From Pseudomonas phage PaBG: a DNA stretch of 64,000 bases. Positions 10,501-43,913 of the stretch are shown piece by piece. The notes under the pieces were generated by a model. The model was not told where the DNA came from. It worked only from the letters and a program-made list of their open reading frames with translations, and made no database searches. The stretch lies in the sequence record KF147891.1. One strand, written 5' to 3'. Within the stretch, counting starts at the first letter, position 1. Every line of letters starts with the position of its first letter. A program made the translations under genes and the position numbers.

Positions 10501-12145
10501 TGCCCAGCTCACCGTTACCGTGGAAGACGAAACCGTCTATCCGGTTAGCGCTGTGATCACCGGTGCAGCCGTCGTGGACTCGCTGCAAACCTCGCAGTAT
10601 GAGCTGCGCGTGACCTTCGATGACAACTCGACCCTGGTAATGCAGGCTGATAGCTGGTCGTCGAGCAACACCACCACCGGCGGCACCATCGACGAGAACG
10701 GCCTGTTCACTGCTGTCGAGAACGTGTCTGGTTCCAACATCAACACGACTCTGACCGCGACCTACAGCCTGGATGGTCGTGAAGTCACCGCGACTCGCGT
10801 TATCGCCGTGCATGACGTGACGAACTATCCGGCAAGCGTCGCTATCAGCGGCCCGAACTCGGTGAACTCGTCCGTGAGTGATGGTCCTGGCACTGCGCAG
10901 TACACCGCGGAAGTGACGTATCTGGACGGTACCAAGAACACGCTACCCTCCGGTACGTGGTCTGTCGAAGGCGCTTCACAGTCCGATCCTGTGGGCACCA
11001 TCGATGCGGCCGGCCTGTTCACTGCCAACCAAACTCCGGGTGGCGGCAACCGCAACATTTCGATCAAGTTCAGCTACACCGAATTTGGTCGTACCGTCAA
11101 CGGCTCCAAGTCTGTGGCGTTCGTTGTTGTGCCGATTCCGCAGTCGCTGGCCATCAATGGTCCGAGCGAAGTGGCTTCGGATGTTTCGCAGCCGTACACT
11201 GCACGCCTGACGCTGAACAACGGTGGCACCATGGACGTACTCGCTACGTTCAGCACTACCGCAGCATCCAACATCGCGTCCATGTCGGCGGATGGTACTC
11301 TGGCTGTGCAACATCTGGCCGCAGATACTCCGATCGAACTGCACGCGACGTACACTGGCAATGGCATCACTGTCACCGCCGACCGCACCATCACTGGTAA
11401 GAAGGCGGTGGAACTCGATAGCATCACTGTATCGGGTCCGACCAACCTTGCCAGCGGTAACAGCGCGCAGTACACAGTCACTGCTCACTACGACAACGGA
11501 ACCACGGCTGATGTTACGGCCTCGGCTACGTTCTCCAGCAGTGTTCCTGCTGCCGGTACGTTCAGTGGCGTGACTCGCGGTCTGTTCCAGGCTGCAAACG
11601 TGCAGAGCGACACCGACACCGTGCTGACGTTCGGCTTCACTGCGAACGGCATCAGCCGATCCGCCACTGTCAACCTGCAGGTGGCTGCTCCGTTGCCAAC
11701 TGGTAGCAACTTGCCGCGCTACGGCGTAGCAATGTTCTCCGACACGGACTTCACCGGCGGTAAGACTGGCACTGACGTGAACTACGGTAATCCGTACACC
11801 CGTTGGTCCGGTATCCAGGACTTCGCCGATTCGGTGTTGACCAACCTGATGCCGAGCGCCAACAGCAGCGAGCAGTTCACGCTCAACATCGGCGAAGCCC
11901 AGTACGGCTACTTCATGCACTTGAAGTCGCTGTCCAACTACTGCGAGTTCACCGATCTTGCGATCAACGTGCCTGGCGGTATGGGCGGTATCACGTGGAC
12001 TCCGGAAGGTGAAATCGGCAGCACCTTCGATCCGATCGAAGTTACCTACGACTGTCACGATGGCAACGGCCCGCAACAGTGGCTGGTGTATCGTACCGAC
12101 TGGGATACCCTCGGCTCGATTACCTTCAGGGTTCGTTACACCTGA
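7571..12145 (+). CDS. giant fibre/whisker-like structural protein with ~12 Ig-like (BIG2-type) tandem domains and a C-terminal GGITWTPEG / WLVYRTDW module
   Basis: 1524 aa. The N-terminal domain is shared with 6910..7554. Repeated ~95-aa units each begin with T(V/N)YP.SA.I.GP. The C-terminal ~140 aa are related to modules in 23281..23700 and 29933..33583. Followed by a terminator. Confidence 0.7.
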   Translation: MATLAEFIRQAVALADYRNLAVENPIPVQLPLGNGENMTVVVSFMEPNNVTLPFNVSWIVVDPDSNDYLKVLRRTSALPMPGYRNTWVEITTMEDLIAEPQFWDLSSGFNLGEVEAPQLGAATIDVRGLVQLNREYAPDRDNPLVVGSNDARMSNARTPLPHTHPKLPITMMRGATGINAYTAKIGTANSPKAGEILTITGPGAQPNEWLGEWRRPTAADLVYDGPTFDDLIINGPVGNTIDETMPFTFSADAAFSDGQTIVGVAASWSVIGNGQYASIGTLTGIFQSLDVDQDQTVRVEARWTHPESGVQRSKFVDILVVDRTIQVNLVSIELNGPDEIEENSIATYTVTAHFDNGTSTGVTPTTFTSSNPGAGEFNAETGVLEVGELTTDQTTTISATYNFNGVTRDATLQVSCLDTTVYPANAVIVGPNTVDENTTVNFVLRVTYTNGTQVDVAASDWASSDEEAGTINATTGEFVAATNLFEDKQTVLTASYTLEGRTVNASKQVLVKDVTVYPRSATILGMASVNEGTIAQYQFRVTFSDDTSAVVSVSNWALDNPAVGTINPTTGQLVAAADVSVDTLGVISASYSANGQTVSATFNVTVTDETNYPASARIVGNAQMDENSTQTVTFEVTYTDGSKVIESITNWASSNTSAATIGAASGLVTAAVNLTANGTTTISGSFTRDGRTVTAELALTVRDTTNYPVSAVINGPATINEGGQADYTLAVTFTDGTTANRAANWSITGGNGATINTSGRVTAPANVDANTGATINASFTLDGRTVNAPARAIQIIDTTVYPSTARIIGPNSVPENTSQTYQLEVTFSDATKAIVPVTNWASSVPTTGTIDANTGLFSALETTGNKVTKITASYTAQGRTVGSELNITVVDATNYPVSAAIEGPAVVAEDGTAQYNLRVTFTDTTSSLVPVTDWASSNEGVGVINPTTGAFVAAANLLADGTTTISASYTSEGIRVDAQLTVTVEDETVYPVSAVITGAAVVDSLQTSQYELRVTFDDNSTLVMQADSWSSSNTTTGGTIDENGLFTAVENVSGSNINTTLTATYSLDGREVTATRVIAVHDVTNYPASVAISGPNSVNSSVSDGPGTAQYTAEVTYLDGTKNTLPSGTWSVEGASQSDPVGTIDAAGLFTANQTPGGGNRNISIKFSYTEFGRTVNGSKSVAFVVVPIPQSLAINGPSEVASDVSQPYTARLTLNNGGTMDVLATFSTTAASNIASMSADGTLAVQHLAADTPIELHATYTGNGITVTADRTITGKKAVELDSITVSGPTNLASGNSAQYTVTAHYDNGTTADVTASATFSSSVPAAGTFSGVTRGLFQAANVQSDTDTVLTFGFTANGISRSATVNLQVAAPLPTGSNLPRYGVAMFSDTDFTGGKTGTDVNYGNPYTRWSGIQDFADSVLTNLMPSANSSEQFTLNIGEAQYGYFMHLKSLSNYCEFTDLAINVPGGMGGITWTPEGEIGSTFDPIEVTYDCHDGNGPQQWLVYRTDWDTLGSITFRVRYT
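8550..11690 (+). repeat. protein-level tandem array of ~12 Ig-like ~285-nt repeats (divergent at DNA level)
   Basis: Recurrent motif ..D.T(V/N)YP.SA.I.GP..V.E.....Y.L.VT(F/Y)(S/T)DG... across the region. Confidence 0.65.
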
Positions 12146-12199: not shown

Positions 12200-13156
12200 A
12201 TGCCACTCTACGCATCTGCTTTTTTCGTGCCTACGAGTGCTGGTGTGCCGTACATTCTGGAGGATATTTATCTCCGTGGCGGCTACCGCTCCGTGGCAAC
12301 AATCGCGGATCGTGATGCAATCAAATCTGCTGCGCGTAAGCAAGGTGCGATTGTCTACGTCCGTGAAGACACAACTCTCTACTGGCTGCCCGATACGGCC
12401 GTCGCTGGGTCCGATGCTTGGAAGCCATTTGACGTGACCCGTTACGTCAACTTCGTCTGGGATGCACCGCTGTCTCTCGATACCGAGACGGAGCCGGGTA
12501 AGTTCCATGTGAAGATCGACGGGAAGCGCATTGTCCCAGTGATCTTGGAAGAACACGCAGGCTTCGTGCTGATCGTTGGCGAGGGCGGCAACCCTGTGTG
12601 GGCTAAGCTGGATGCCTTGCCTAATCGTGATGCTGCCGCTGCTGGCCATGCGCTGATCTTGGATGCCCAGAAGAATCCGATCTGGGGTGCCGTGTCCTCG
12701 CTCCCATCTACCGAAGGTGTTGCGCAGGGTTCCGCCCTTGTCGTCGATTCCGAAGGCGGTGCTGTTTGGGGCGAAGCTGCCAAGAAGGCGCGCATTACAC
12801 CTGAGCATTCCCCGGGTCCGATCATTGCGGCTGGCACTGCACAGTTTGAACTCACGCTGAACTCCCAGTTCGGTGCCGTGCTTCGTCTGGCTGTGTCGCA
12901 TCCTGATCTGGTTGTCGAACTGCATCGCGCAGAAACCTTCGACGACACCAACCCGTACACGTTCATTTCGTCTGTTGCCAAGCTCGAAGACGATGGCATC
13001 ACCGTCCTCGAAGGCGGCGAAATCCAGAAATCCCGTCGCTATGGGTTCTTCGAGGCTGCCACGGCCGTCGAGCCCAAGATGTACGTCAAGATCACCAACG
13101 AAGGACAGGACTCGGTCGAGCCTACTCTCTACCTGACGTTCCTGCCTATGGAGTAA
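12200..13156 (+). CDS. hypothetical protein
   Basis: 318-aa ORF following the terminator; no motif recognised. Confidence 0.55.
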   Translation: MPLYASAFFVPTSAGVPYILEDIYLRGGYRSVATIADRDAIKSAARKQGAIVYVREDTTLYWLPDTAVAGSDAWKPFDVTRYVNFVWDAPLSLDTETEPGKFHVKIDGKRIVPVILEEHAGFVLIVGEGGNPVWAKLDALPNRDAAAAGHALILDAQKNPIWGAVSSLPSTEGVAQGSALVVDSEGGAVWGEAAKKARITPEHSPGPIIAAGTAQFELTLNSQFGAVLRLAVSHPDLVVELHRAETFDDTNPYTFISSVAKLEDDGITVLEGGEIQKSRRYGFFEAATAVEPKMYVKITNEGQDSVEPTLYLTFLPME

Positions 13157-13159
13157 GTC

Positions 13160-14350
13160 ATGCTGATGATCGCCGAAGCTAAAGTGAAGGACTTGGCGAC
13201 AATGTCCTGGTTTACCTACACCGGCGAGAAGGCGATCAAGCTCGGTACGGACAAACAGTTCAACCAGAAGCATCCACTCGTGGTGCGCCCAGGTGAACTG
13301 GTCGGTCTGAAAAAAGCTGCCCGTGGTCCAGGTGCTGGCAACTACCAAGTTGTGCTGGGCCACGCGGTGCATGTCCTCTTCCGCAACGTCACGCAGAAGA
13401 TGATCGATAAGATCGAGGGCAAGCTCAAGCCGTACAAGGGTAAGCCACCGGAGCATGGTCAACTTCAGGAAGGTAAGAAGCGCACCACGAAGGTGCGTAT
13501 CCGAGAAAAGGAAACCTCCGACAAGCTGGTTGCTGATCTGTTCAAACCCGAAGGGCCTGTGCGAGAGAACGCTACCTACAACAGGGAGAACTACCAATGG
13601 CGCCGTGTTGTTCACGCTGGCGTCGCGGTGAAATCCTTGAAGCAGGGTCGTTCCAAGTACAGTACCCAAGAAGGCGATGTCGTCGGTATGCGTTACATGA
13701 CCAAGGCGCGTGGTGGCTTCATCATCCTGCCAAACATGCAGCGCGTCAACATTGATCACGACACCTACATGAAGCTCATCGAGTCCACGCGCATCCAACC
13801 GTCCTCGAAGCAACAAAAAGGCATCGTGATTCTCGCCGACGTTAAGGCAACCCTGCCGAAAGAGACGCGCAATCGCAAGAAGAAGGAACCAGAACCGGAC
13901 GTTCGCATCCAGCGCGGTGAGCCCGAGAAAACGGCTGGCCGACGGATGCAACGTGACATCAAAGGCTTCACGCATGACCACGACATCCCAGACGTGGACA
14001 TTGAAGACGACGAACTGGAAGACGAAGCTCCATCGCAGGTGCCAGAAGCGCACCAGCCTGCGAAGGTGATCAGAGTCGGCTCGTTGCTCCAGAGCGCCAA
14101 GCGCCCTGACAACAAGTTTGCTGTCGTGGACGCCGAAGTACACGAAACGTACACCGAGTTCTCCCTCTACAGTCTGCGTACCAAGGATGTGCGTAAGCTG
14201 AGGATGTCCAACGATACCGACATGTCCAACACCAAGTCCGTTCTGGTGCTCGGTGATGTGTCCAAGTCGGAACTCGCCGCAGGTAAACGGGCTTTCAACA
14301 AGGCTGTAAAAGATAAGAAGTTTACCGTCGGCACCATTCATGACCAGTGA
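13160..14350 (+). CDS. hypothetical basic (Lys/Arg-rich) protein with acidic DIEDDELEDE patch
   Basis: 396 aa; SD GGAG precedes ATG 13160. Confidence 0.55.
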   Translation: MLMIAEAKVKDLATMSWFTYTGEKAIKLGTDKQFNQKHPLVVRPGELVGLKKAARGPGAGNYQVVLGHAVHVLFRNVTQKMIDKIEGKLKPYKGKPPEHGQLQEGKKRTTKVRIREKETSDKLVADLFKPEGPVRENATYNRENYQWRRVVHAGVAVKSLKQGRSKYSTQEGDVVGMRYMTKARGGFIILPNMQRVNIDHDTYMKLIESTRIQPSSKQQKGIVILADVKATLPKETRNRKKKEPEPDVRIQRGEPEKTAGRRMQRDIKGFTHDHDIPDVDIEDDELEDEAPSQVPEAHQPAKVIRVGSLLQSAKRPDNKFAVVDAEVHETYTEFSLYSLRTKDVRKLRMSNDTDMSNTKSVLVLGDVSKSELAAGKRAFNKAVKDKKFTVGTIHDQ

Positions 14351-22631: not shown

Positions 22632-23165
22632 ATGCAGATCAAGGTAGCTATGTATAGCGCAGAAGCAGCGAACAAGCTCAGCCATATCCCCTACACAGGA
22701 ACCAACGGCCTGTACTCCGCAGTGGTCCCGACTCCAGGGTCCATCGAAGCCATCATCAAGCTCGCGGACGAGCTGGAGCTGTCCCCGGAAGAGGATGCGC
22801 TGCACGCTACAGTGATCTACAGTAAGAAGGCGCCTGGGGATAACGTCGAGGCCGTGAAGCGAATCGCAGATTCCGATTACGCCTACCACGGCGTCATCAA
22901 CGCGGTAGAGCACTGGGTCGGCCACAACGGCAAGACCTATATAGTGCTCAAGCTGGTGAGTGCTGGCATCGTTCTCGCCAACGCCAGCTTGCAGCGCATG
23001 GGCGCCGAGCACACGTTCGTCCCGTTCTCTCCGCACATCACCTTGAGTGACGACGTTCCTGTAGACGAAGCCATGCAAGCCCGCATCGATTTCGTGAACA
23101 AGCGCCTGGCTTTCGACCCGATCGAGGTCAAGCTCATCAACCAGATCGTCGGTGACTTGGATTGA
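22632..23165 (+). CDS. 2H phosphoesterase superfamily protein (LigT/CPDase/Acb1-like)
   Basis: Two H-x-T-x motifs (HATV at aa ~56, HITL at aa ~137) about 80 residues apart; 177 aa. Confidence 0.6.
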   Translation: MQIKVAMYSAEAANKLSHIPYTGTNGLYSAVVPTPGSIEAIIKLADELELSPEEDALHATVIYSKKAPGDNVEAVKRIADSDYAYHGVINAVEHWVGHNGKTYIVLKLVSAGIVLANASLQRMGAEHTFVPFSPHITLSDDVPVDEAMQARIDFVNKRLAFDPIEVKLINQIVGDLD

Positions 23166-23280
23166 AGAAGCCCAAGAAGCGCAAAGGTAAGAAGTCCGTG
23201 CGCATCAAGGTGCCTTTGTTCCCTAATCAAGGCACCCCTGCCGAGACGGATGTCGTTCAACTCCCACCAGAGAATCGCTT

Positions 23281-23700
23281 ATGAGTATGCTCTGTGCGTC
23301 TCCGTATCGCGCGCCGAAAGTCAGACCTCCGATTGAAACTGACTTGTGGCCGCGCTACGGACTGGGCCGCCTCGAAACCTACGACAACCAAGCGATGATG
23401 GACATCGCCTTGGCGACGGAGCACGAGGACCCGCTCAACAACCCAACTTTCGTCTTGCCTGCGATAGACGAAACCCTCTATTACTACTACATAGTCCCGC
23501 TTGCCTACGGTAACGCCACGTTCTACGGACCGAGCGGATTCGCAGGTGGCTGGGACGGGGCAAGCTGGCCGCTCGATGACGTAGGCGAGGAGTACGGTCC
23601 TGTCGAAATCACGTATCGCGGCAATCAGTATCTGCTCTATCGCACCGACTTCGGCGGCGGCCAGGGCGGTACGTACACCGTGACCTTCGCCAATGGCTAA
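23281..23700 (+). CDS. stand-alone copy of the GGWDGASWP / YLLYRTDF fibre-terminal module
   Basis: YYYYIVPLAYGNATFYGPSGFAGGWDGASWPLDDVGEEYGPVEITYRGNQYLLYRTDFGGGQGGTYTVTF aligns with the modules in 29933..33583 and 7571..12145. Confidence 0.6.
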   Translation: MSMLCASPYRAPKVRPPIETDLWPRYGLGRLETYDNQAMMDIALATEHEDPLNNPTFVLPAIDETLYYYYIVPLAYGNATFYGPSGFAGGWDGASWPLDDVGEEYGPVEITYRGNQYLLYRTDFGGGQGGTYTVTFANG

Positions 23701-23938
23701 GATCAAGGTGCAGCTCTGGGACCCACATCGACCGTACGACGGTGTGCGCGCCCCTAAGCATGAGGAGCCTGTGTATACGGACACTCCTGCCAAGAAAAAG
23801 AGTCGCCTGAGAGACAAGCGCAAGAAGCGCGAGCGCGATCAGATTCCTACTGCCACCCAGTCTCCGTCCCAGGAGAACACGTTCGTCTCCAAAGTCAATT
23901 GGTTGGGTAGGCGCGAACGCGGTATTGACCCGTACTAG
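23693..23938 (+). CDS. hypothetical basic protein
   Basis: ATG overlaps the upstream TAA (ATGGCTAA); 81 aa, K/R-rich. Confidence 0.45.
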   Translation: MAKIKVQLWDPHRPYDGVRAPKHEEPVYTDTPAKKKSRLRDKRKKRERDQIPTATQSPSQENTFVSKVNWLGRRERGIDPY

Positions 23939-28469: not shown

Positions 28470-29933
28470 ATGACGCAACTTACCATCAGCAAAGTCGTCG
28501 TTGACGAACAGGACATCTATAACGAGCTGGCGCGGCGTCTCGCGGAAAAAGGCACATGGAAAGACCTACTGCCGACAAACGTAGGTTCGACCTTGATGAG
28601 CCTGGCGTCCGGTGCTGCGACTGTCAACCAGCACTATATCAACGTCAGCCTGCGCGAAGCGTTCCTCTCGACGGCGGTTCGTGATTCGTCCATCTTCCAC
28701 AATACGCGCAGCTTGGGTATCAAGATCAGCCGAAAGACTTCGGCGGGCGTTACCGTGCAGTTGCAAAACAACTTGGCGACAACCAAGTTCATCCCAGCGT
28801 ACAGTGCGTTCCTCGTGGGCAGCACCTACTTCTACAACCGCGAACAGTTGATGATTCCGCCTGGCGTGAGCATCGATGGGATCAACCTGTATCAAGGCGA
28901 AGTGCGGGAATATGAGTTCGACATCGACGCTCTTTCCGCGCAAGACCTGCAGACGTTCAAGCTCAATACTCCAGGCTTCATTGTCTCGGAGTACGATCTG
29001 GTCGTCTGGACAGAAGACAAGGTGAGCGGCAACACAACTGTCTGGGAACAAACGGATCAAGCGCTGTTTGAACTTGGTCCAACCGACCAGAAGTATTACG
29101 AGTTTACAGCGGGCGATGGCGACGTTGCATTCATGTTCGGCACTGGTGAGTACGGTGCACGTATCCCGTCGAACCACCTGTTGAAGATTCGCGCCATTAT
29201 CACCACTGGCACCAACGCAATCGGTATCAGCGGTGAGCGCGTTCGTATGGTGAGTCAGCCAGAAGTAAGTGGCTTCTCCACATCGAACGTAGCAGGCGGC
29301 AGTGACGAAAAGAGCGCCCTGTACTACAAGCTGTTCGCACCTACGATGTTCCGTTCCAATCGCAAGGCGATCAGCGCTACGGAAGTACGCGCCCACATCA
29401 TGAAGTATCCAGGCGTCGCCGATTGTCGGGTGTTCCCGCAGCGCGACATTGCACCGAATGACCCACGCTGGCAGAACGTCATGCGTGTGTGTATTCTGCC
29501 TGAGACGACTGATGACTGGGGTGGTGCAAACCCTAATCCGGTGAGTGCAGCCTGGGAACAGTTTGAACAGTGGTTGCTCGCACGTTGCCAAGCACTGGCG
29601 GAGATTCAGAAATGGAACCCGTCGAAGCTGTTCGTCAACGTGCAGGTGCTGCTCGCGGTTAATCCTGATGTGGACATCGAGGAAATGCGCATCGTCGTTA
29701 CGGAGCGTATCCTCAAGCTCTTCCAGCGCAAGCCCGGAATCCTGGGCCGTCGCCTGAGCTTGTCAGACATCGAAGGGGCGTGCCGCGTAGCTGGTGTGGA
29801 CTACATCGAAATCAAGTCCCCGACCGAAGAAATCATCCCGCCAGACCCAACGCAGTACGCGGTGCTTGACGGCTCCCCAATAGTCAACATCGTTTACTCA
29901 GAGCGCAAGGCTGGCACTGTTGGAGCCTTCTGA
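28470..29933 (+). CDS. baseplate J-like protein (gp6/GpJ family) candidate
   Basis: 487 aa; position directly after the gp25/W-like gene; SD AGGA. Assignment is by synteny and size only. Confidence 0.45.
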   Translation: MTQLTISKVVVDEQDIYNELARRLAEKGTWKDLLPTNVGSTLMSLASGAATVNQHYINVSLREAFLSTAVRDSSIFHNTRSLGIKISRKTSAGVTVQLQNNLATTKFIPAYSAFLVGSTYFYNREQLMIPPGVSIDGINLYQGEVREYEFDIDALSAQDLQTFKLNTPGFIVSEYDLVVWTEDKVSGNTTVWEQTDQALFELGPTDQKYYEFTAGDGDVAFMFGTGEYGARIPSNHLLKIRAIITTGTNAIGISGERVRMVSQPEVSGFSTSNVAGGSDEKSALYYKLFAPTMFRSNRKAISATEVRAHIMKYPGVADCRVFPQRDIAPNDPRWQNVMRVCILPETTDDWGGANPNPVSAAWEQFEQWLLARCQALAEIQKWNPSKLFVNVQVLLAVNPDVDIEEMRIVVTERILKLFQRKPGILGRRLSLSDIEGACRVAGVDYIEIKSPTEEIIPPDPTQYAVLDGSPIVNIVYSERKAGTVGAF

Positions 29934-32900
29934 TGGAAAAGCTCACATTCGATGGACTACAGCCTGAAATCTTTTTCTCGCAGCCGTGGTTCACCGACTT
30001 CACGGAAGTTTATGCGGACGTGCTGAATGATCGGATTCGCTATCCGATCTACCAGCTGGAGAACATCCGCAACGTACTGCAACTGGATGATCCTTACGTG
30101 GTCCTCCAGACGATCAAGCAGCTTGGTTTCGACTTGCCTAGCGACTTCATCCGCCATAACCTGAGCGTGTTGTCGCAGTCGATCCCGCAGCTGGCGTTGT
30201 ACGCTGAGCGCTCCGGCGCCAACGACTATGCCCGCTCCATGTCGTTCATCTTCGGGCGCAGCATCGACGCCACGCAACTGTTCACCGAAGACTACATCAA
30301 CTTCTACACGCAACCCTACGGGCCGTTGCTTGTCGATGGCGGCGAGTGGTACAAGACCACTCACATCGAACTTGGTATGCAGTATCTGGCGAGCGACTAC
30401 ACCCTGTTGCTCCCAAGAGGCAAGACGATCAAGGATCGTTTCCTTGACGCCTTCCACGAGTTTGCACCTTGGAACGTCGTGGTAGAACGCTTCTACTTCA
30501 TGGTGGACATCGAGATTCCTCTGTTCATCAGTGGTCGCATCGTCAAGCAGCCCAAGCGCTACATCGATGTTGGCGTGGGTGACTTGCACGTCGCCGACAT
30601 GAAGATCGTCGGCCCAGACGAAGTTTGGGAATCCAGCCAGCAGCGCTTTGAACTACAGGTCACCTTGCAGAACGGTACCGACGGCGGTGTTGATTACATC
30701 CCGCGTCGTCCGCTGCTGGGTACTGCACCGTGGAACGCATCGCTCTCGGACATCGCAGCATTCGAGGTGAAGTCGCTGGGCAACCAGATCATGGAGTTTA
30801 ATATTCCAGACGGTCACTTCGGTTATCTGTGCTACCCGAAAGCCATGGGTCTCGCCACTTTCACGGATACGAACCTCGGCATTCCCGGCGGCTGGGATGG
30901 TGCAAGCTGGCCAGAGGGTGACGTTGGCAGTACATTCGGCCCCATCGAAATTCAGCGTCAGGTTGGTGATACTGTCAGCACTTGGTACCTGTATCGGACA
31001 GACTTCGATAGTCTCGGCGATGTCAGCTATCAGGTTGACTTTGAAAACCCATTGGTCGATGAATCCGATGAGCAAACCACAGCCCAGTCTGACACGTTCG
31101 TTACACAGATCGTCACAGTCCCAGCCGAGTGGTTGAGCAACAAGACTGGCTTGGTGAATTGGGACGGCGGTTTGGCTTCGTTTGGTGCTGTTGGGTTGAA
31201 CACGGATGTGGTCATTTCCGCTGAATATCAAGGTCGCGCAGTGTCGAAAGCCGTGCGAGTGAAGAACAACGCAAGCAACATTCGCGCAATTCGCATTGAA
31301 GGTCCGGACGAAGTACGTGCGCAGGAATCCGCCATCTACGTGATCAAAGCCACGACCACTGGCGGCGAAGAGACCATAGACATTCCGATCACCACCAACT
31401 CTTTGCTCGGCTACATGCAAGGCAATGAGCTGACGGTGTACCAAATCGATGCCGATGGCTCGATCTTCCTGAGCGCTCTCTGCGAACTGCCTGATGGGCA
31501 GAAGCTGAAAGCCGTGAAGAAGGTTGCTGCCAAGTACGTCGATCCTGACGTATACATGACCTCGCTTGTCATCGACGGCCCAGCAGAGTTCTTCGAGAAT
31601 GAGGTGAAGCAGTATGCCTGCGTCGCCCATTACTCGGACGGCACGCAGAAAGGCGTTCTCGCAGTTTGGAACTCCGGCTGTGGTGGTGTGTACATCGCGC
31701 CCGATGGTGAGCTTCACGCAACGACTACCGAGCGCGACATCAAGCTCGTTCTGCGGGCCACGCACCAGCACAAAAAGACGGCGATGACGGCTGAGTTTCC
31801 TGTCACCTTCCGACGCCGCACTGTGTCGATTGTACACACGGAAATCCTCGGTCCGAACACCGTGATCGAGTTGACCCGAAACAAGTACGTCGTGGCTGCT
31901 CGATTCAGTGATGGCAGCAGCGGCTATGTCGATGCCGACTGGAGCTCCAATCGCTACTACGTCGATGATCGTGGTATTCTGGAAGTGGGTTCTGTAGGCA
32001 GTACGCCTGTGAACCTGCAACTGACCGCGAACGTCGATGGGCGCACAGCTATCAAGCAGGTTGTTGCAATTGACACGCCCATCGTGCTGGAGAACATTCT
32101 GGTACTCGGCCCGGATAACTTGCGCGAGGGCGACATCGGGAAATACACTGCCTACGCTCGTTACAGCAACGGGCGCGACGTGGAAATCCAACCTACGTGG
32201 TCGATTCGTGGTGCTCCGACCTGGGCGCAAGTCGATGCCAACGGTCTGTTGTCCTTCGCTTCGCCCCAAGAAGGTATCGTGGAGCTTGTTGCCACGTACC
32301 GTCTCGCGGGCCGTACATACGAACAGAGCAAGCCCATCGTGCTCATTCCGAAGTCGCGGTTGATTCAAGGCCTCATGGTGTCTGGTCCGAACACCGTGGA
32401 AGAAGGCAAGCGCATCGTGCTCACGGCCACTGCCGTGTACAACGACGGCTCGGTCGAAACGGTATCTCCTCTGTGGACTGTGCAGTCTGCTGACCCGTTG
32501 AACGATCCTGAGGCGATGGCCGACATCGTGTCGCCCGGTGTCTTGCAGGGCCGCACCGTGGAGAAAGACACCCGCGTGGTTGCTATTGCTCGCTACTTCA
32601 AGGAGATTGCTGAGTTTGAAATCACCGTGACTCCGATGATTCGCAACTCGCCGGACAAACCTGTGTCGAGTCGCATCATTGGTCCTGCGGCGTTCTACGC
32701 AGATCAGCGAGGCAGTTTCGCGCATGCCATTGTTTTCGAGGAATGTGCCGCCGAGCTGCTTGTCAGTAGCGACTGGACAATCGACGTGGACCCGAGTGTT
32801 GCAACGATTGATTCGGCTGGTTACGTCTGGTCAGTCAACGGCAAGAGCGTTACTGCGACGATCACTTCTACATACACGTGCGGCACGTACACCGTCGTGG

Positions 32901-33583
32901 ATAGTATCCTGGTGAACATCATCGGCCAGAGCGACGCACTGCGCGAGCTTGTGATCGAAGGCCCAGACACCGTGATCGGTGGACAGCTCACCTTGTATAC
33001 GGCTAGGTTGTTCCGTACTGGAGAAGTCGAGGGTGAAATCGTACAGCCGCAATTCTGGGAGATTGTTTCCCCAGACGGGCGTGCAACGATCAACGGCAGC
33101 GGTCAGGTGTACATCGTGGACTCCTCGCAGCCGTTCAGCTTCATCATCAAGGCGAAGTATCAGGAAGGTTTCGAGTCCGTTGAAGCGGTCAAAGAAATCA
33201 ACGTCATCAAAGATGCTCGCCCGATTCTCGGCATTGGTCCAATCGGTGTTCGGAACGATCCTGAAATCGCGCAGTATCTGACCACAGAGCTTCCTGGGTT
33301 GTCCAGCGGACAGCGCTTCACGCTGACTGCACCTGCTGGACAGTACATGTACTTCTGCTATCCGCAATCGCTTGGCTTGGCTACTTTCCGAGACATCGCT
33401 TCAAGTTTCGAGGGCGGTTGGGACGGAGCAAGCTGGCCTGATGATGGGACAGTAGGTGATCAGTACGGACCGATCGTCGTCCAGCGTGTCAATGAGTTAG
33501 GCGTTACTTCTACCTGGTATCTGTATCGTACCGACTTTGAAGGTATCGGCACGTTCACCTATGAAGTGACTTTCGGCAATTAA
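29933..33583 (+). CDS. large baseplate-associated fibre protein with Ig-like repeats and two copies of the GGWDGASWP / WYLYRTDF module
   Basis: 1216 aa. The N-terminal ~280 aa form a possible baseplate-attachment (GpI-like) region. Module copy 1 is at aa ~287-370 (nt ~30790-31045). Ig-like repeats (GPDEV..., GPNTV..., GPDNL...) occupy nt ~31260-33200. Module copy 2 is at the C-terminus (nt ~33290-33580). Confidence 0.65.
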   Translation: MEKLTFDGLQPEIFFSQPWFTDFTEVYADVLNDRIRYPIYQLENIRNVLQLDDPYVVLQTIKQLGFDLPSDFIRHNLSVLSQSIPQLALYAERSGANDYARSMSFIFGRSIDATQLFTEDYINFYTQPYGPLLVDGGEWYKTTHIELGMQYLASDYTLLLPRGKTIKDRFLDAFHEFAPWNVVVERFYFMVDIEIPLFISGRIVKQPKRYIDVGVGDLHVADMKIVGPDEVWESSQQRFELQVTLQNGTDGGVDYIPRRPLLGTAPWNASLSDIAAFEVKSLGNQIMEFNIPDGHFGYLCYPKAMGLATFTDTNLGIPGGWDGASWPEGDVGSTFGPIEIQRQVGDTVSTWYLYRTDFDSLGDVSYQVDFENPLVDESDEQTTAQSDTFVTQIVTVPAEWLSNKTGLVNWDGGLASFGAVGLNTDVVISAEYQGRAVSKAVRVKNNASNIRAIRIEGPDEVRAQESAIYVIKATTTGGEETIDIPITTNSLLGYMQGNELTVYQIDADGSIFLSALCELPDGQKLKAVKKVAAKYVDPDVYMTSLVIDGPAEFFENEVKQYACVAHYSDGTQKGVLAVWNSGCGGVYIAPDGELHATTTERDIKLVLRATHQHKKTAMTAEFPVTFRRRTVSIVHTEILGPNTVIELTRNKYVVAARFSDGSSGYVDADWSSNRYYVDDRGILEVGSVGSTPVNLQLTANVDGRTAIKQVVAIDTPIVLENILVLGPDNLREGDIGKYTAYARYSNGRDVEIQPTWSIRGAPTWAQVDANGLLSFASPQEGIVELVATYRLAGRTYEQSKPIVLIPKSRLIQGLMVSGPNTVEEGKRIVLTATAVYNDGSVETVSPLWTVQSADPLNDPEAMADIVSPGVLQGRTVEKDTRVVAIARYFKEIAEFEITVTPMIRNSPDKPVSSRIIGPAAFYADQRGSFAHAIVFEECAAELLVSSDWTIDVDPSVATIDSAGYVWSVNGKSVTATITSTYTCGTYTVVDSILVNIIGQSDALRELVIEGPDTVIGGQLTLYTARLFRTGEVEGEIVQPQFWEIVSPDGRATINGSGQVYIVDSSQPFSFIIKAKYQEGFESVEAVKEINVIKDARPILGIGPIGVRNDPEIAQYLTTELPGLSSGQRFTLTAPAGQYMYFCYPQSLGLATFRDIASSFEGGWDGASWPDDGTVGDQYGPIVVQRVNELGVTSTWYLYRTDFEGIGTFTYEVTFGN

Positions 33584-33838: not shown

Positions 33839-36157
33839 ATGGTGGCGGAAGTATTGGTATTGTCCGACGTCGGCCTTCAGGCGATCAACAACGCATCCGC
33901 AGGTGGTCAGCTTGTGGATGCGGAGTCCTTTCGTATCGGCGACAGCGCGGGCAGCCCGAACAAAACGGATGCGACCGACATCCTCGGGAACATGCTGTTT
34001 GAAGGCAACATTCACCATGTCGAGGTGTTGAACAAGAACACTGCCCGTTTCGTGTTTGAAGTTCCTGGGTATCAAGTGACTCAGGACACCGAAATCAAAG
34101 AGATGGCAGTGTTCCTGAGCTCCTTCATCTGCTTGGGTCGTGTCGTTCTGAAAGCGCCAATCACCCTGCTGGCTGGAGAGACTACGCGCTTCAACTGCTT
34201 GCTGGTAACGAATCGCTGCGACCTGACCACGATCAACGTCACCTTTGGCGACTACTCGTCCATCCCGATGACGCCGTTCGTGTATCAGCTCCAGTCGCCC
34301 GGCCTGTCAAACTTCAACGCTGTCACCGTCCTCGATGGTCAGATCAACGATGACGGTTCGACTTCGCCTGTGCTCGCCATGCGTTATGGTGGCGGCAGCT
34401 TCCAGTGGGCGTTCAGTAACCACACGCGCATCTTCTTCGGGAAGCCCACTGCTGCAACCAGCACCAGCGTGACCATCGATGGTCTCGATCTGGATGAGAA
34501 CGAAGTGGTCATCGGCCACATCGTCAACGGCAACGGCCTGGGTCAAACTCGTCGCTGGCGTGTGCAGAACGGTCGTCTTGTCGAGGCAGACAATCGTCCG
34601 ATCAACGGCCTGGATTCCAACTCGACTATCGCTGTTTGGCAGCGTAGCGCTGGTGGCGGACAAGGCGGCGGCGCTTGCAGCTACCCGCCTTCGATGAATG
34701 GCGTGCCTGCTGACTGGGTTCTCGTTCGCGGTCATGGTGCTTGCCCGCAGTGGGCTCCGCCTCGCTCTGGTGCTGGTAACACAGCCACGTTGTACTCGCC
34801 GCCAAGTCGTCTGACGATGAACACGGTGAGCTATACTGGCGACGGCACCACCGCACGCTACCCGCTGGGTGCTCTTGAGCTGGAGAACGTCAACTACGTC
34901 CATCCAGTGCTCGGCGGTGTGAGTCAGCACCGTAGCTCGTTCGACATGGCGGCCAACGAAATCGAGTTCGTGGAAAAGATCCCGATGGGTCTGCCTATCG
35001 AACTGCGCACGTACAACCGCATCCCGTCGAATGGTTCGCGCCTGATCATCAAGACGGACTTCTTCGTCGGCGATGGTGTGACGCAGCGGTTCAAGATCAG
35101 CCAGCCGATTGAGAACGCCAACTACGTCAAGCCGTATCTGCGTGGTATTTTCCAGTTCATCACCACGTACACCTACGATGCTGCAACGCAAGAAGTGGTG
35201 TTCATCGGTCCTGTGCCTGCTGGCGTGGACGTGGAGCTGCGTTCATTCCGCTCCGAAGACTTCGAGGGGTCGAGTACCCAGATCAGCACCTACACGTACA
35301 CCACGCGTGAGGACACACTGTTCCTGGAGTTGCCTATCTCTCCGCAGTCGGTTGAGTACGTCGAAATCAGCCAGAGTGGTGCGCACATTCACGCGAACCA
35401 GTACAGCCTGGTGGACAACAAGATCATCTTTGCAGGCACCATTCGCAAAGACCTGGCGCTTGAAGTCACGGTGTACGACAACAAGATCAGCCAGGGCAGC
35501 GCCAACACCAACCTCAAAGGCGTGGTCGTCGATGCTGTGCTCTCCGGCCGTAGCTTGAAGTTGCTGCGCCACGGTGACAAGCCCATCAGCTTGCCGATTC
35601 CAGCAATCTCGCTGGAAGCTGGTCCAGGTATGCGTATCAGCGGACAACATCCGTTCTATCGGATCGAGTCCACAATCGCAAACCAGATGACAGACGCCAA
35701 CGCCAACTTCAAGCACTCCGACATCCGGACGCAGAAGGACTCTTCGGAGATTCAGTTCACTCATCGGGTGAATCTGAGCACCGACGTCATGGTATCTGTC
35801 CACGCCGACTTCTCTGCGCAGCTCGGCCCTGGCTTCGTGTCCGTCGAGGGCTTGGAGATTATGGAGTACGTGGTTGGTTTCCGTACTTCCAAGTCGCGTG
35901 AACCTGAGTACGGCCGGCAGATTGCAGGCACGGGTACTGCTGGTTTCAGCTCCTTGGCGGGAGACAAGAACGAGCGCGCCTACTCCAACGCTTCGTTGAC
36001 CCAGGTGTATGACGTGATCGTTGCCAACCACGCTGCCGGTTACATCGACATCGTGGTGAAGATGCGAGTGAAGAACGCAAACGTGAGCCAGTATGGCTCG
36101 CTGCTGTCGTTGACCGTAAACATTGTCGGTACTCCGAAAATCGCAGCCAGCGAGTAA
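33839..36157 (+). CDS. tail fibre protein with tail-collar-type N-terminal domain (P2 gpH-like N-terminus)
   Basis: N-terminus VLSDVGLQAINNASAGGQLVDAESFRIGDSAG...ILGNMLFEGNIHHVEVLNKNTARFVFEVPGY parallels the P2 gpH / DUF3751 N-terminus; 772 aa. Confidence 0.6.
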   Translation: MVAEVLVLSDVGLQAINNASAGGQLVDAESFRIGDSAGSPNKTDATDILGNMLFEGNIHHVEVLNKNTARFVFEVPGYQVTQDTEIKEMAVFLSSFICLGRVVLKAPITLLAGETTRFNCLLVTNRCDLTTINVTFGDYSSIPMTPFVYQLQSPGLSNFNAVTVLDGQINDDGSTSPVLAMRYGGGSFQWAFSNHTRIFFGKPTAATSTSVTIDGLDLDENEVVIGHIVNGNGLGQTRRWRVQNGRLVEADNRPINGLDSNSTIAVWQRSAGGGQGGGACSYPPSMNGVPADWVLVRGHGACPQWAPPRSGAGNTATLYSPPSRLTMNTVSYTGDGTTARYPLGALELENVNYVHPVLGGVSQHRSSFDMAANEIEFVEKIPMGLPIELRTYNRIPSNGSRLIIKTDFFVGDGVTQRFKISQPIENANYVKPYLRGIFQFITTYTYDAATQEVVFIGPVPAGVDVELRSFRSEDFEGSSTQISTYTYTTREDTLFLELPISPQSVEYVEISQSGAHIHANQYSLVDNKIIFAGTIRKDLALEVTVYDNKISQGSANTNLKGVVVDAVLSGRSLKLLRHGDKPISLPIPAISLEAGPGMRISGQHPFYRIESTIANQMTDANANFKHSDIRTQKDSSEIQFTHRVNLSTDVMVSVHADFSAQLGPGFVSVEGLEIMEYVVGFRTSKSREPEYGRQIAGTGTAGFSSLAGDKNERAYSNASLTQVYDVIVANHAAGYIDIVVKMRVKNANVSQYGSLLSLTVNIVGTPKIAASE

Positions 36158-38037: not shown

Positions 38038-38727
38038 ATGATTGGTTTGACTCGTATTCCCACGGGCATGATCTTCGCCCCAGGCGAGGCCTCACAGACT
38101 GAGGTAGTAGTCGAAGACGATCACCTAAAAGCGGCGGAGCCTGTTGAGTCTGACATCAGTGAAATCGAGAGCGGGTTCTACGACTGGCAACTCGGCATCC
38201 TGACACTCGCCATGTACAACGGAACCGTCATCAAGATCAGCGGTTTCGCCACTGCCGGTAACATCCCTGCGGGCCCTACAGGTCCGCAAGGTCTGCCTGG
38301 TAAAGATGGTAAAGATGGACGTGATGGCAAAGACGGTGCCAAGGGTCCAGAGGGTTGCCAAGGCCCACAGGGTCCACAGGGTGCTCAAGGTGCTACAGGT
38401 CCTGATGGTCGTGATGGGCAGATGGGCCAACAAGGTCCCCGCGGCTGTCCTGGCCCAAAAGGCCCTCCTGGCGAACGTGGACCAACTGGTCCTATGGGTC
38501 CATTGGGTCCGACCGGTCCTAGAGGAGAACAAGGTGCGCAAGGTGCTCCCGGCGCTCCTGGTCCTGCGGGCACAGTGAACATCATCGTCTCTACTACTGA
38601 TCCTGGTGCAGTTGGCGCCGGTTGGCTGTGGGTTAATCCAGGTGCGACAGGTGCCCCGAGCGGTGGTTCTGGTGGCGGCGGTTCTACTACGCCTACTGAC
38701 CCTCCGATTGGGACGCCATGGCCTTAA
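38038..38727 (+). CDS. collagen-like protein (GLTRIP N-terminal family)
   Basis: N-terminus MIGLTRIPTGMI...; Gly-X-Y region at nt ~38266-38575. Confidence 0.6.
   Translation: MIGLTRIPTGMIFAPGEASQTEVVVEDDHLKAAEPVESDISEIESGFYDWQLGILTLAMYNGTVIKISGFATAGNIPAGPTGPQGLPGKDGKDGRDGKDGAKGPEGCQGPQGPQGAQGATGPDGRDGQMGQQGPRGCPGPKGPPGERGPTGPMGPLGPTGPRGEQGAQGAPGAPGPAGTVNIIVSTTDPGAVGAGWLWVNPGATGAPSGGSGGGGSTTPTDPPIGTPWP
38266..38575 (+). repeat. collagen-like Gly-X-Y triplet repeat region
   Basis: About 34 uninterrupted G-X-Y triplets. Confidence 0.8.
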
Positions 38728-38741
38728 GGTAAGGTGAACAC

Positions 38742-39263
38742 ATGACAGGCTTGACAAGAGTTCCTCTGAAAATGATCGGTGCCTCAGGGCAGCCCGGCGA
38801 TGACGTTCGTTTCGACGGACGCGATGTCGCTGTGGTGCCCAGCACCGAGGACACGAACGACTACGGGCTCACCAGCGGTACGTATGACTCCATCGCTGGA
38901 CGCCTGACCCTGGTGCTGCGCAACGGCGCCCGCCTCGAACTCGACGGGTTCATCACCACTGGCGATATCGGCGTAGGCCCCGCTGGTCCGACAGGCCCCG
39001 CAGGCCGCGATGGTCGCGATGGCTTGAACGGCGTAGACGGCGAGAAGGGCGCCACTGGTTGCCAAGGCCCGGCCGGTCCTCCTGGTCGTCAAGGTCCTCG
39101 CGGTGAGCAAGGCATCCCAGGCCCCACGGGCCCCACAGGCGCTACCGGCCCAACAGGCCCGGCCGGGGAAGACGGCGTTCCGCAAATCTGGATTCAAACA
39201 GAAGACCCGGTCATCAAATCCGCAGATCACATAGTCCCCGGTGCATTGTGGGTGAAGCCGTAA
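38742..39263 (+). CDS. collagen-like protein (GLTRVP N-terminal family)
   Basis: N-terminus [12 protein letters not shown]...; Gly-X-Y region at nt ~38973-39180; SD AAGGTAAGGTG. Confidence 0.6.
38973..39180 (+). repeat. collagen-like Gly-X-Y triplet repeat region
   Basis: [67 protein letters not shown]. Confidence 0.8.
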
Positions 39264-43106: not shown

Positions 43107-43913
43107 ATGAGTGGATTGACAAGAATCCCGCTCCCGATGATCGATCCTGGCGCTGGCGTCGCTAACGACGAGGTGAAATTCAACGGAGAGCGCCTCGAAT
43201 TGCAAAACCCGGACGACGATACCGATGTCCAGGTCACGGAAGGTGTGTACGACCCAGAGACAGGCACGTTGACTCTGCGCAAAGCAGACAACTCTGTGCT
43301 CAACATTCGCGGCTTCTTGACCAAGGCGAGTGTCGGTGTAGGCCCCACTGGCCCAACAGGTCCTCAGGGTAAGCCTGGTATCAACGGGCGCAACGGCAAA
43401 GATGGTCGCGTAGGTGATCAAGGCTGCGTGGGGCCCAAAGGTGATCCAGGCCCAGCAGGCCCGACGGGCCCAGCAGGTCCGGGTGGCGGTATCGGTGCTC
43501 AGGGCGCTACTGGCCCAACTGGTCCAACTGGTCCGACAGGCCCTGCTGGACTTGACGGTAAGGCACCAACGTTCGGCGTAGGCGAAGTGGATGCTTACGA
43601 GTTCTACGAGAATCACAGCCTTAAATGTTGGGGCCGATTCACGTCGGAAGATGCGGCAGTTTTCCAGCGCGTCGTATTCCCGGAAGCCTTCGAGCGAGAC
43701 AAGCCACGGGTCATGCTTCTGCAATTCATCGACCCGAAGAGCAACGTCAAGAACGCCGTGCGCATCGACCGTATCAACAAAGGCAACGCCGAGTTGAGTG
43801 TGGATGCTTCCATGTTGGAGCAAGAATCCGATGGTGAAGGCGGCACGCGACCTGTAGCTGCTACCGGTTGGGACTTCTACTGGTTCGTCATCGGCAGCGA
43901 CGCCGACGCATAA
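43107..43913 (+). CDS. collagen-like protein (GLTRIP N-terminal family) with C-terminal globular domain
   Basis: N-terminus [12 protein letters not shown]...; Gly-X-Y region at nt ~43332-43560; SD GAGGAAACT. Confidence 0.6.
43332..43560 (+). repeat. collagen-like Gly-X-Y triplet repeat region
   Basis: [73 protein letters not shown]. Confidence 0.8.

Follow-up and report, generated by a model that had tools for sequence, protein, structure and literature searches.

Ig-like domains of phage virions (Big_2, I-set, FN3; e.g., in T4 Hoc) are small, mobile β-sandwiches that are often repeated, as is the module described here. They are exposed on the particle, are dispensable for assembly and have been proposed to provide weak, non-specific carbohydrate adhesion. 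Pseudomonas phage PaBG is a 258-kb jumbo myovirus whose known relatives, Lu11, Erwinia phage Y3 and Dickeya phage AD1, are the 'hairy Myoviridae'. The stretch of PaBG DNA analysed here (the window) comprises 64,000 nucleotides and corresponds to genome positions 160001-224000 (window coordinate + 160000). Three of its proteins carry four copies of one module: PaBG_00229, which has a single copy and little else, PaBG_00241, which has two copies, and the Ig-repeat protein PaBG_00215. The module defines a domain family that is missing from the libraries searched and is without a detectable solved structural relative; the carrier proteins themselves have been public since 2013-14.

Translation placed all four copies where a sequence-only reading of the DNA had found recurring blocks of ~90 aa. 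The block is real, but its length was underestimated, as the module spans ~115-145 aa. Its true start lies ~35-45 residues upstream, where a conserved P-x-Y/L-G strand leads into a short helix; in foreign proteins, profile matches mostly begin ~40 residues upstream of the earlier block. Circularity was avoided by scoring homology with a hidden Markov model (HMM) trained on 89 foreign sequences of the family, none of which reaches 60% identity to a window copy; this HMM was run on the six-frame translation of the window. The proposed homology survived this profile scoring (i-E 4.3e-27 to 1.2e-45; Table 1), and no fifth copy was found in the six-frame translation, where the next best match had E >2; the window thus holds exactly four copies, far beyond chance. 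Compared pairwise by BLASTP, the four segments are 30-52% identical (E 1.5e-6 to 1.9e-30). Copy 4 has GGMGG in place of GGWDG and an insertion of ~25 aa after its first strand, an insertion subtype also found in P0190; its LPRYG strand at aa 1381 was located by motif search. A megablast comparison of 13 kb of the window with the phage collection gave no match.

Table 1. Carrier proteins, module copies and adjoining segments in the PaBG window (positions are window coordinates).
Feature	Position	Strand	Details
PaBG_00215, 1524 aa	7571..12145	+	adjoins tail sheath gene
Module copy 4, C-terminal, divergent	11711..12142	+	aa 1381-1524 of PaBG_00215; HMM i-E 4.3e-27 over aa 1416-1523
PaBG_00229, 139 aa	23281..23700	+	N-terminal peptide and one module; S5VMG5 / YP_008433551.1
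N-terminal peptide MSMLCASPYRAPKVRPPIETDL of PaBG_00229	23281..23346	+	ahead of module copy 1
Module copy 1, stand-alone	23347..23697	+	aa 23-139 of PaBG_00229; HMM i-E 2.2e-33
PaBG_00241, 1216 aa	29933..33583	+	directly after gp25-like and gp6/J-like baseplate genes
First Ig-like domain of PaBG_00241, N-terminal part	30584..30700	+	aa 218-256, repeat-profile positions 4-37; jackhmmer E 2.5e-9
Module copy 2, internal	30704..31048	+	aa 258-372 of PaBG_00241; HMM i-E 3.8e-37
First Ig-like domain of PaBG_00241, C-terminal part	31088..31282	+	aa 386-450, repeat-profile positions 33-91; jackhmmer E 1.7e-9
Module copy 3, C-terminal	33215..33580	+	aa 1095-1216 of PaBG_00241; HMM i-E 1.2e-45

HMMER searches of 1.84 billion representative proteins returned 216 clusters at E<=1e-3 and 115 at E<=1e-10. 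Among 165 proteins examined, each carries one to seven copies, which may be N-terminal, internal, C-terminal or alone; the last copy ends the protein in 146 of the 165, and 56 are <=175 aa long, some of which may be fragments. Some proteins have modules at both ends, and unrelated architectures, including P0053 and P0065, also occur. The family signature reads Y-x-Y-F-x-x-P...G-x-A-T-F-x-D...G-G-W-D-G-A-x-W-P...G-P...W-Y-L-Y-R-T-D, and over 245 instances the best-conserved positions are the P, G and F of 'P...G.ATF', 'GGWDGA.W', 'GP' and 'Y-R-T-D'. Phages that infect Pseudomonas, Erwinia or Dickeya retain this signature, as do many environmental contigs. Motif scans, which detect only members with exact GGWDGA[ST]W or W[YL]LYRTDF, found two short contigs from metagenome-assembled genomes among the bacteria and archaea (one genome per species, 185,579 species) and 42 loci in the viral collection, many on contigs of 220-278 kb and often several per contig; in the one smaller viral contig checked, the baseplate gene order was identical. 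Judged from these searches, the family hardly occurs outside phages and is found mainly in jumbo myoviruses of the PaBG/Lu11/Y3 lineage. One member, P0025 (726 aa), combines a hydrophobic, signal-peptide-like N-terminus, three modules, an HYR-like stretch and Asp-rich thrombospondin type 3-like repeats (identified by eye) and is possibly a secreted protein of bacterial or chimeric origin.

The view that the block belongs to no named family held up. Pfam-A gave nothing meaningful for the three PaBG proteins or for 94 diverse module sequences (none below E 0.01), the module was unrecognised in an NCBIfam scan, and PDB sequences, searched with a single query and two profiles, returned noise only. 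A word-indexed protein search with the 94-sequence profile retrieved nothing but short proteins that lack a name and informative Pfam partners, and PHROGs include the module only within whole-protein clusters. Neither the module nor its motif is described in the literature searched, which included the PaBG papers and a jumbo-phage domain survey.

Domain shuffling among fibre genes had also been suggested. The module is indeed mobile between virion proteins, but the four copies are not recent products of shuffling, since related phages have separate orthologues for each of the PaBG copies and the nearest neighbour of a module is generally one of its own positional type (in 58 of 72 cases for stand-alone modules, 37 of 43 for baseplate-internal ones and 18 of 28 for baseplate-C-terminal ones).

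AlphaFold models were obtained for two different family members from different alignments, PaBG_00229 (AF2 model m0921c2db31e6; pLDDT 80.8, pTM 0.75) and copy 3 (AF2 model m969eb5674351; pLDDT 87.9, pTM 0.84). The order of elements is the same in both: a strand, a short helix and seven more strands. As modelled, the module is a β-sandwich of eight strands and one short helix with no detectable solved or named relative. After GGWDG, ~17 residues of lower confidence are without regular secondary structure, or a few more when the isolated bridges around GGW are included, and the conserved loop (GGWDGAxWPxDGxxGxxxGP) adjoins the conserved WYLYRTD strand. W, D, W, Y, R and D, which are among the most conserved residues, lie in or beside this irregular segment. 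Sugar-binding sites typically have such a composition, and the conserved Trp, Asp, Arg and Tyr around the long loop would suit a sugar- or cation-binding site; the conserved loop could also be purely structural. The top structural neighbour of both models is the CBM-like periplasmic sensor domain of P. aeruginosa RetS (PDB 2xbz), a weak match, followed by further weak matches to CBM56 and to glycosidase accessory domains. These model-based similarities are weak hints of a carbohydrate-binding role.

Three familiar classes of virion domain were considered and rejected. A divergent Ig-like domain is contradicted by hhalign comparison with the PaBG Ig-repeat profile (probability 0.8%), and Ig-type Pfam families over the 94 module sequences gave only one single-member match each to Big_9 (E 0.1) and Rib (E 0.14). 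An intramolecular chaperone of the Peptidase_S74 type was discarded, given that Pfam shows no match and that the module is not restricted to C-termini but is also found at internal and N-terminal positions, in tandem and by itself. For a TNF/C1q-like or other solved fibre knob, no structural match to a solved knob domain was found.

PaBG_00241, annotated as 'tail fiber/intimin-like SinH', consists of a putative N-terminal wedge-type domain, a split Ig-like domain that holds copy 2, ~7 Ig-like repeats and copy 3. Its gene sits at the P2 gpI / T4 gp7 wedge position, downstream of the gp25-like and gp6/J-like genes, and the order PAAR-like, gp25-like, gp6/J-like, 1216-aa protein is the same in PaBG and in its relatives L003, L004 and L046. 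The N-terminal 230 residues have no match in Pfam, NCBIfam or PDB sequences. The halves of the split Ig-like domain were found by jackhmmer with one repeat of the 1524-aa protein and with a repeat HMM; copy 2 is nested inside this first Ig-like domain, adjoining the presumed baseplate-anchoring domain. In an alignment with the module-less orthologues P0048, P0050 and P0052, copy 2 is a clean insertion of ~135 residues, and the Ig-like domain is uninterrupted in P0048 (223-305) and P0052 (221-307). Across orthologues the internal site carries zero to six modules, with tandem sets of three, four or six separated by Pro/Glu/Thr-rich linkers. Copy 3 is the best-conserved region of the protein (92.6% vs 87.0% overall, with P0024); for the farther relatives P0027 and P0035, the values are 47.5% and 45.9% for copy 3 vs 39.4% and 38.6% for the whole protein. 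Separately, Table 1 of PMC7412058 lists the 'base plate wedge subunit' gp240 at 83.5 kDa, whereas PaBG_00240 (28470-29933) has 487 aa (~54 kDa by length) and the 772-aa PaBG_00243 (33839-36157) fits 83.5 kDa; the gp240 entry looks like a numbering slip.

PaBG_00215 comprises an N-terminal fibre-type domain, 12 Ig-like repeats of ~96 aa and module copy 4. The protein was detected in purified virions as band 2 (159.7 kDa, 'long tail fibre'; PMC7412058, Table 1). Both large proteins, PaBG_00241 and PaBG_00215, are covered by PHROG 14098 ('tail protein'), and this assignment, the baseplate gene order, the neighbouring sheath gene and the presence of PaBG_00215 in virions mark them as virion proteins. 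The tail sheath gene and a gene for a 214-aa tail protein directly precede the Ig-repeat fibre gene in both PaBG and Erwinia phage Y3, whose counterpart of PaBG_00215 is gp154 (1335 aa; L001 2392-6399). Both Y3 and AD1 have been called 'hairy' myoviruses, and the abundant virion protein PaBG_00215 is a candidate for tail hairs; PaBG micrographs mention only small appendages at the tail end. The PaBG_00215 gene is followed by genes for a 318-aa protein (12200-13156, +), annotated as 'endosialidase chaperone' and with no Pfam match, and a 396-aa protein (13160-14350, +) with a KMPT-N domain (PF20294, E 7e-17); the matching Y3 genes are annotated as 'tail sheath'. Elsewhere in the window, three paralogous collagen-like/tail-fibre proteins (38038-38727, 38742-39263 and 43107-43913, all +) share the start M-(I/T/S)-G-L-T-R-(I/V)-P-x-x-M-I, which may be an attachment peptide common to these paralogues.

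The 139-aa open reading frame (PaBG_00229) is, on comparative grounds, a real gene, since it has at least 14 full-length orthologues (138-144 aa, 47-97% identity; a profile search adds more) in conserved synteny. The syntenic contigs (189-265 kb) have a prohead protease gene, then one or two small genes, and after these Acb1, the gene of the module protein, a 75-81-aa gene and a 114-126-aa gene, in this order. Its GenBank name, 'putative major tail protein', most likely stems from similarity to the C-terminus of a large Y3/AD1-type protein so named. This misleading annotation can be corrected, as PaBG_00229 is not a 'major tail protein'. Ahead of the module lies a peptide that is common to module-first proteins, with the consensus M-S/T, 4-5 hydrophobic residues and T/S-P-Y-R/K-x-P...KPP; the motif [PA][YF][RK] falls within the first 16 residues in 36 of 58 module-first proteins. 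A closely similar N-terminal peptide opens four larger proteins (515-935 aa) in which two terminal modules flank other repeat domains; two of the four score as motif-positive. In the AF2 model of PaBG_00229 the peptide is unstructured (mean pLDDT 54-69 over residues 1-20), and secondary structure starts only from residue 25. None of the other window proteins carries the PYR peptide.

The finding of zero to six copies at one site, within a loop that tolerates insertion, indicates that the module is an optional add-on and not a required assembly element. Orthologous baseplate proteins carry tandem arrays of three to seven copies with hydrophilic linkers. Arrays of this kind are usual for modules that bind through avidity, e.g., carbohydrate-binding modules (CBMs). 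Optional internal presence, tandem amplification with flexible linkers and tolerance of loop insertion, all read from sequence, point to a self-folding add-on that is exposed and optional, with its valency under selection. The role we favour, at somewhat short of an even chance, is that of a generic lectin-like adhesion ('stickiness') module and not a host-specific receptor binder, with ligand binding itself presumed. The ligand would be a widespread one, of the envelope or the exopolysaccharides, and would be bound weakly and multivalently, with the conserved Trp/Asp/Arg-rich loop as the putative binding site. Such binding would raise reversible attachment, with host specificity residing in other fibres. 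PaBG displays the module in three forms: (i) at the free C-terminal ends of the two long Ig-repeat proteins PaBG_00241 and PaBG_00215, (ii) inserted into a loop of the baseplate protein's first Ig-like domain, a site of variable copy number among relatives, and (iii) as a mini-protein of conserved N-terminal peptide plus one module, the 139-aa protein, which is presumed to be virion-associated. Carbohydrate binding is plausible, and the higher conservation of the module than of the rest of the protein fits a conserved ligand. That phages with different hosts conserve the module so strongly speaks for a widespread ligand, or for an intra-virion partner, and against a host-range tip.

A partner within the virion is the basis of the next reading, structural docking, which we consider unlikely on balance. 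Here the module would join virion proteins to one another: it might, for example, tie the free ends of the Ig-repeat fibres to the sheath or baseplate, or bind copies of itself, with the 139-aa protein serving as an adaptor or cap that is anchored through the N-terminal peptide. High conservation and occurrence in three proteins of one virion fit docking equally well. Copy 3 as the most conserved region of the baseplate protein points the same way, as do three virion-type proteins in one genome with each paralogue retained with its own orthologues, modules at both ends of some proteins, and the resemblance of the conserved N-terminal peptide of stand-alone forms to an anchoring tail. However, a required structural contact would hardly allow between zero and six copies at the internal site, the long hydrophilic linkers that separate tandem copies point to freely exposed domains, and the module is also found in unrelated architectures such as P0053 and P0065.

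The sequence-only reading had proposed a distal receptor-binding knob, and in its strict form, with C-terminal modules as the distal tips that engage the primary receptor and set host range, this is improbable. The predominantly C-terminal position in the family, the long fibre-like Ig arrays of the carrier proteins and the module at the end of the virion fibre PaBG_00215 speak for it. A distal knob suits two of the four copies; the internal copy, in contrast, is proximal and nested, in the first Ig-like domain near the presumed baseplate-anchoring domain. Conservation speaks against a host-range tip, given that copy 3 is the most conserved and not the most variable part of PaBG_00241 and that, between relatives, the module varies less than the rest of the protein. 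Furthermore, phages of Pseudomonas, Erwinia and Dickeya and environmental contigs have the same signature, and many other PaBG fibre/adhesin genes could carry specificity.

We think it very unlikely that the 139-aa protein is no virion component at all and instead re-uses the module as a soluble intracellular or released factor, which would act, for example, with the adjacent anti-defence gene or by masking ligands on debris and infected cells. Its gene lies outside the tail and baseplate clusters, directly downstream of the anti-CBASS gene Acb1 in PaBG and in three related contigs, and the protein is absent from the 14 identified PaBG virion bands (PMC7412058); this absence and the place of the gene beside Acb1 also weigh against the adhesion reading favoured above. 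However, the genomes are collinear, so the synteny with Acb1 may mean nothing, and a 15-kDa minor protein is easily missed when only 14 abundant bands are identified. In addition, the N-terminal peptide and module also head the 515-935-aa adhesin-like proteins, and no signal peptide is evident at the N-terminus of PaBG_00229 by inspection.

The surroundings of the PaBG_00229 gene yielded several further observations. The gene directly upstream (22632-23165, +) is annotated as 'RNA ligase LigT' and matches Pfam Acb1 (anti-CBASS 2H phosphodiesterase) with 54 bits vs a cutoff of 27; the related contigs with the same Acb1 and module-protein pair are L003, L004 and L005. The 115-nt spacer between the two genes (23166-23280) contains an inverted repeat, GGTGCCTT...AAGGCACC, without a T-run; inspection of this spacer recognised no promoter or strong Shine-Dalgarno sequence, and no promoter-like motif common to the upstream regions of PaBG_00229 and the structural genes was seen by eye. 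Downstream, an 81-aa lysine/arginine-rich open reading frame (23693-23938, +) overlaps the stop of PaBG_00229 by 8 nt and has no PHROG or Pfam match. In L003, L004 and L005, likewise, the PaBG_00229 orthologue is followed by a 75-81-aa gene and then a 114-126-aa gene.

A further conceivable scheme, to which we attach little probability, is that the module is a self-recognising docking unit ('plug and socket') and not a host-binding domain. The PYR peptide would anchor the 139-aa protein to the tail, where this protein would act as the socket for the C-terminal modules of the Ig-repeat fibres. The fibres would be stowed on the virion, or cross-linked to it, until host contact releases them, and the variable tandem arrays of the baseplate protein would set the number of fibres held.

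If the generic adhesion proposed above is correct and the module does bind a surface ligand, it would represent a new lectin-type fold specific to jumbo phages and could serve as a marker for the jumbo-phage adsorption apparatus and possibly as a cell-surface probe. The most notable details are the nested insertion of variable copy number and the putative anchoring peptide of the stand-alone form; the former, with its zero to six copies at one loop, is a clean natural case of valency tuning in a baseplate protein. Current views of phage adsorption are unchanged by the module family.

The module can be set against several known systems. PHROG 14098 matches the 139-aa protein through its last 120 positions (E 1.1e-11) and PHROG 36080 (function unknown) matches it at E 2.4e-6, but both are whole-protein clusters with generic labels and not domain definitions. 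Compared with Ig-like domains, the module is longer (~115 vs ~96 aa) and has a helix and a long signature loop. Like C-terminal fibre knobs (TNF/C1q-like jelly rolls, adenovirus/PRD1-type), it is a compact β domain that ends a long fibre, and like carbohydrate-binding and Ig-like adhesion modules, it is optional, occurs in tandem and tolerates insertion. It is thus a new family in a familiar class, that of the accessory β-sandwich modules carried on phage fibres.
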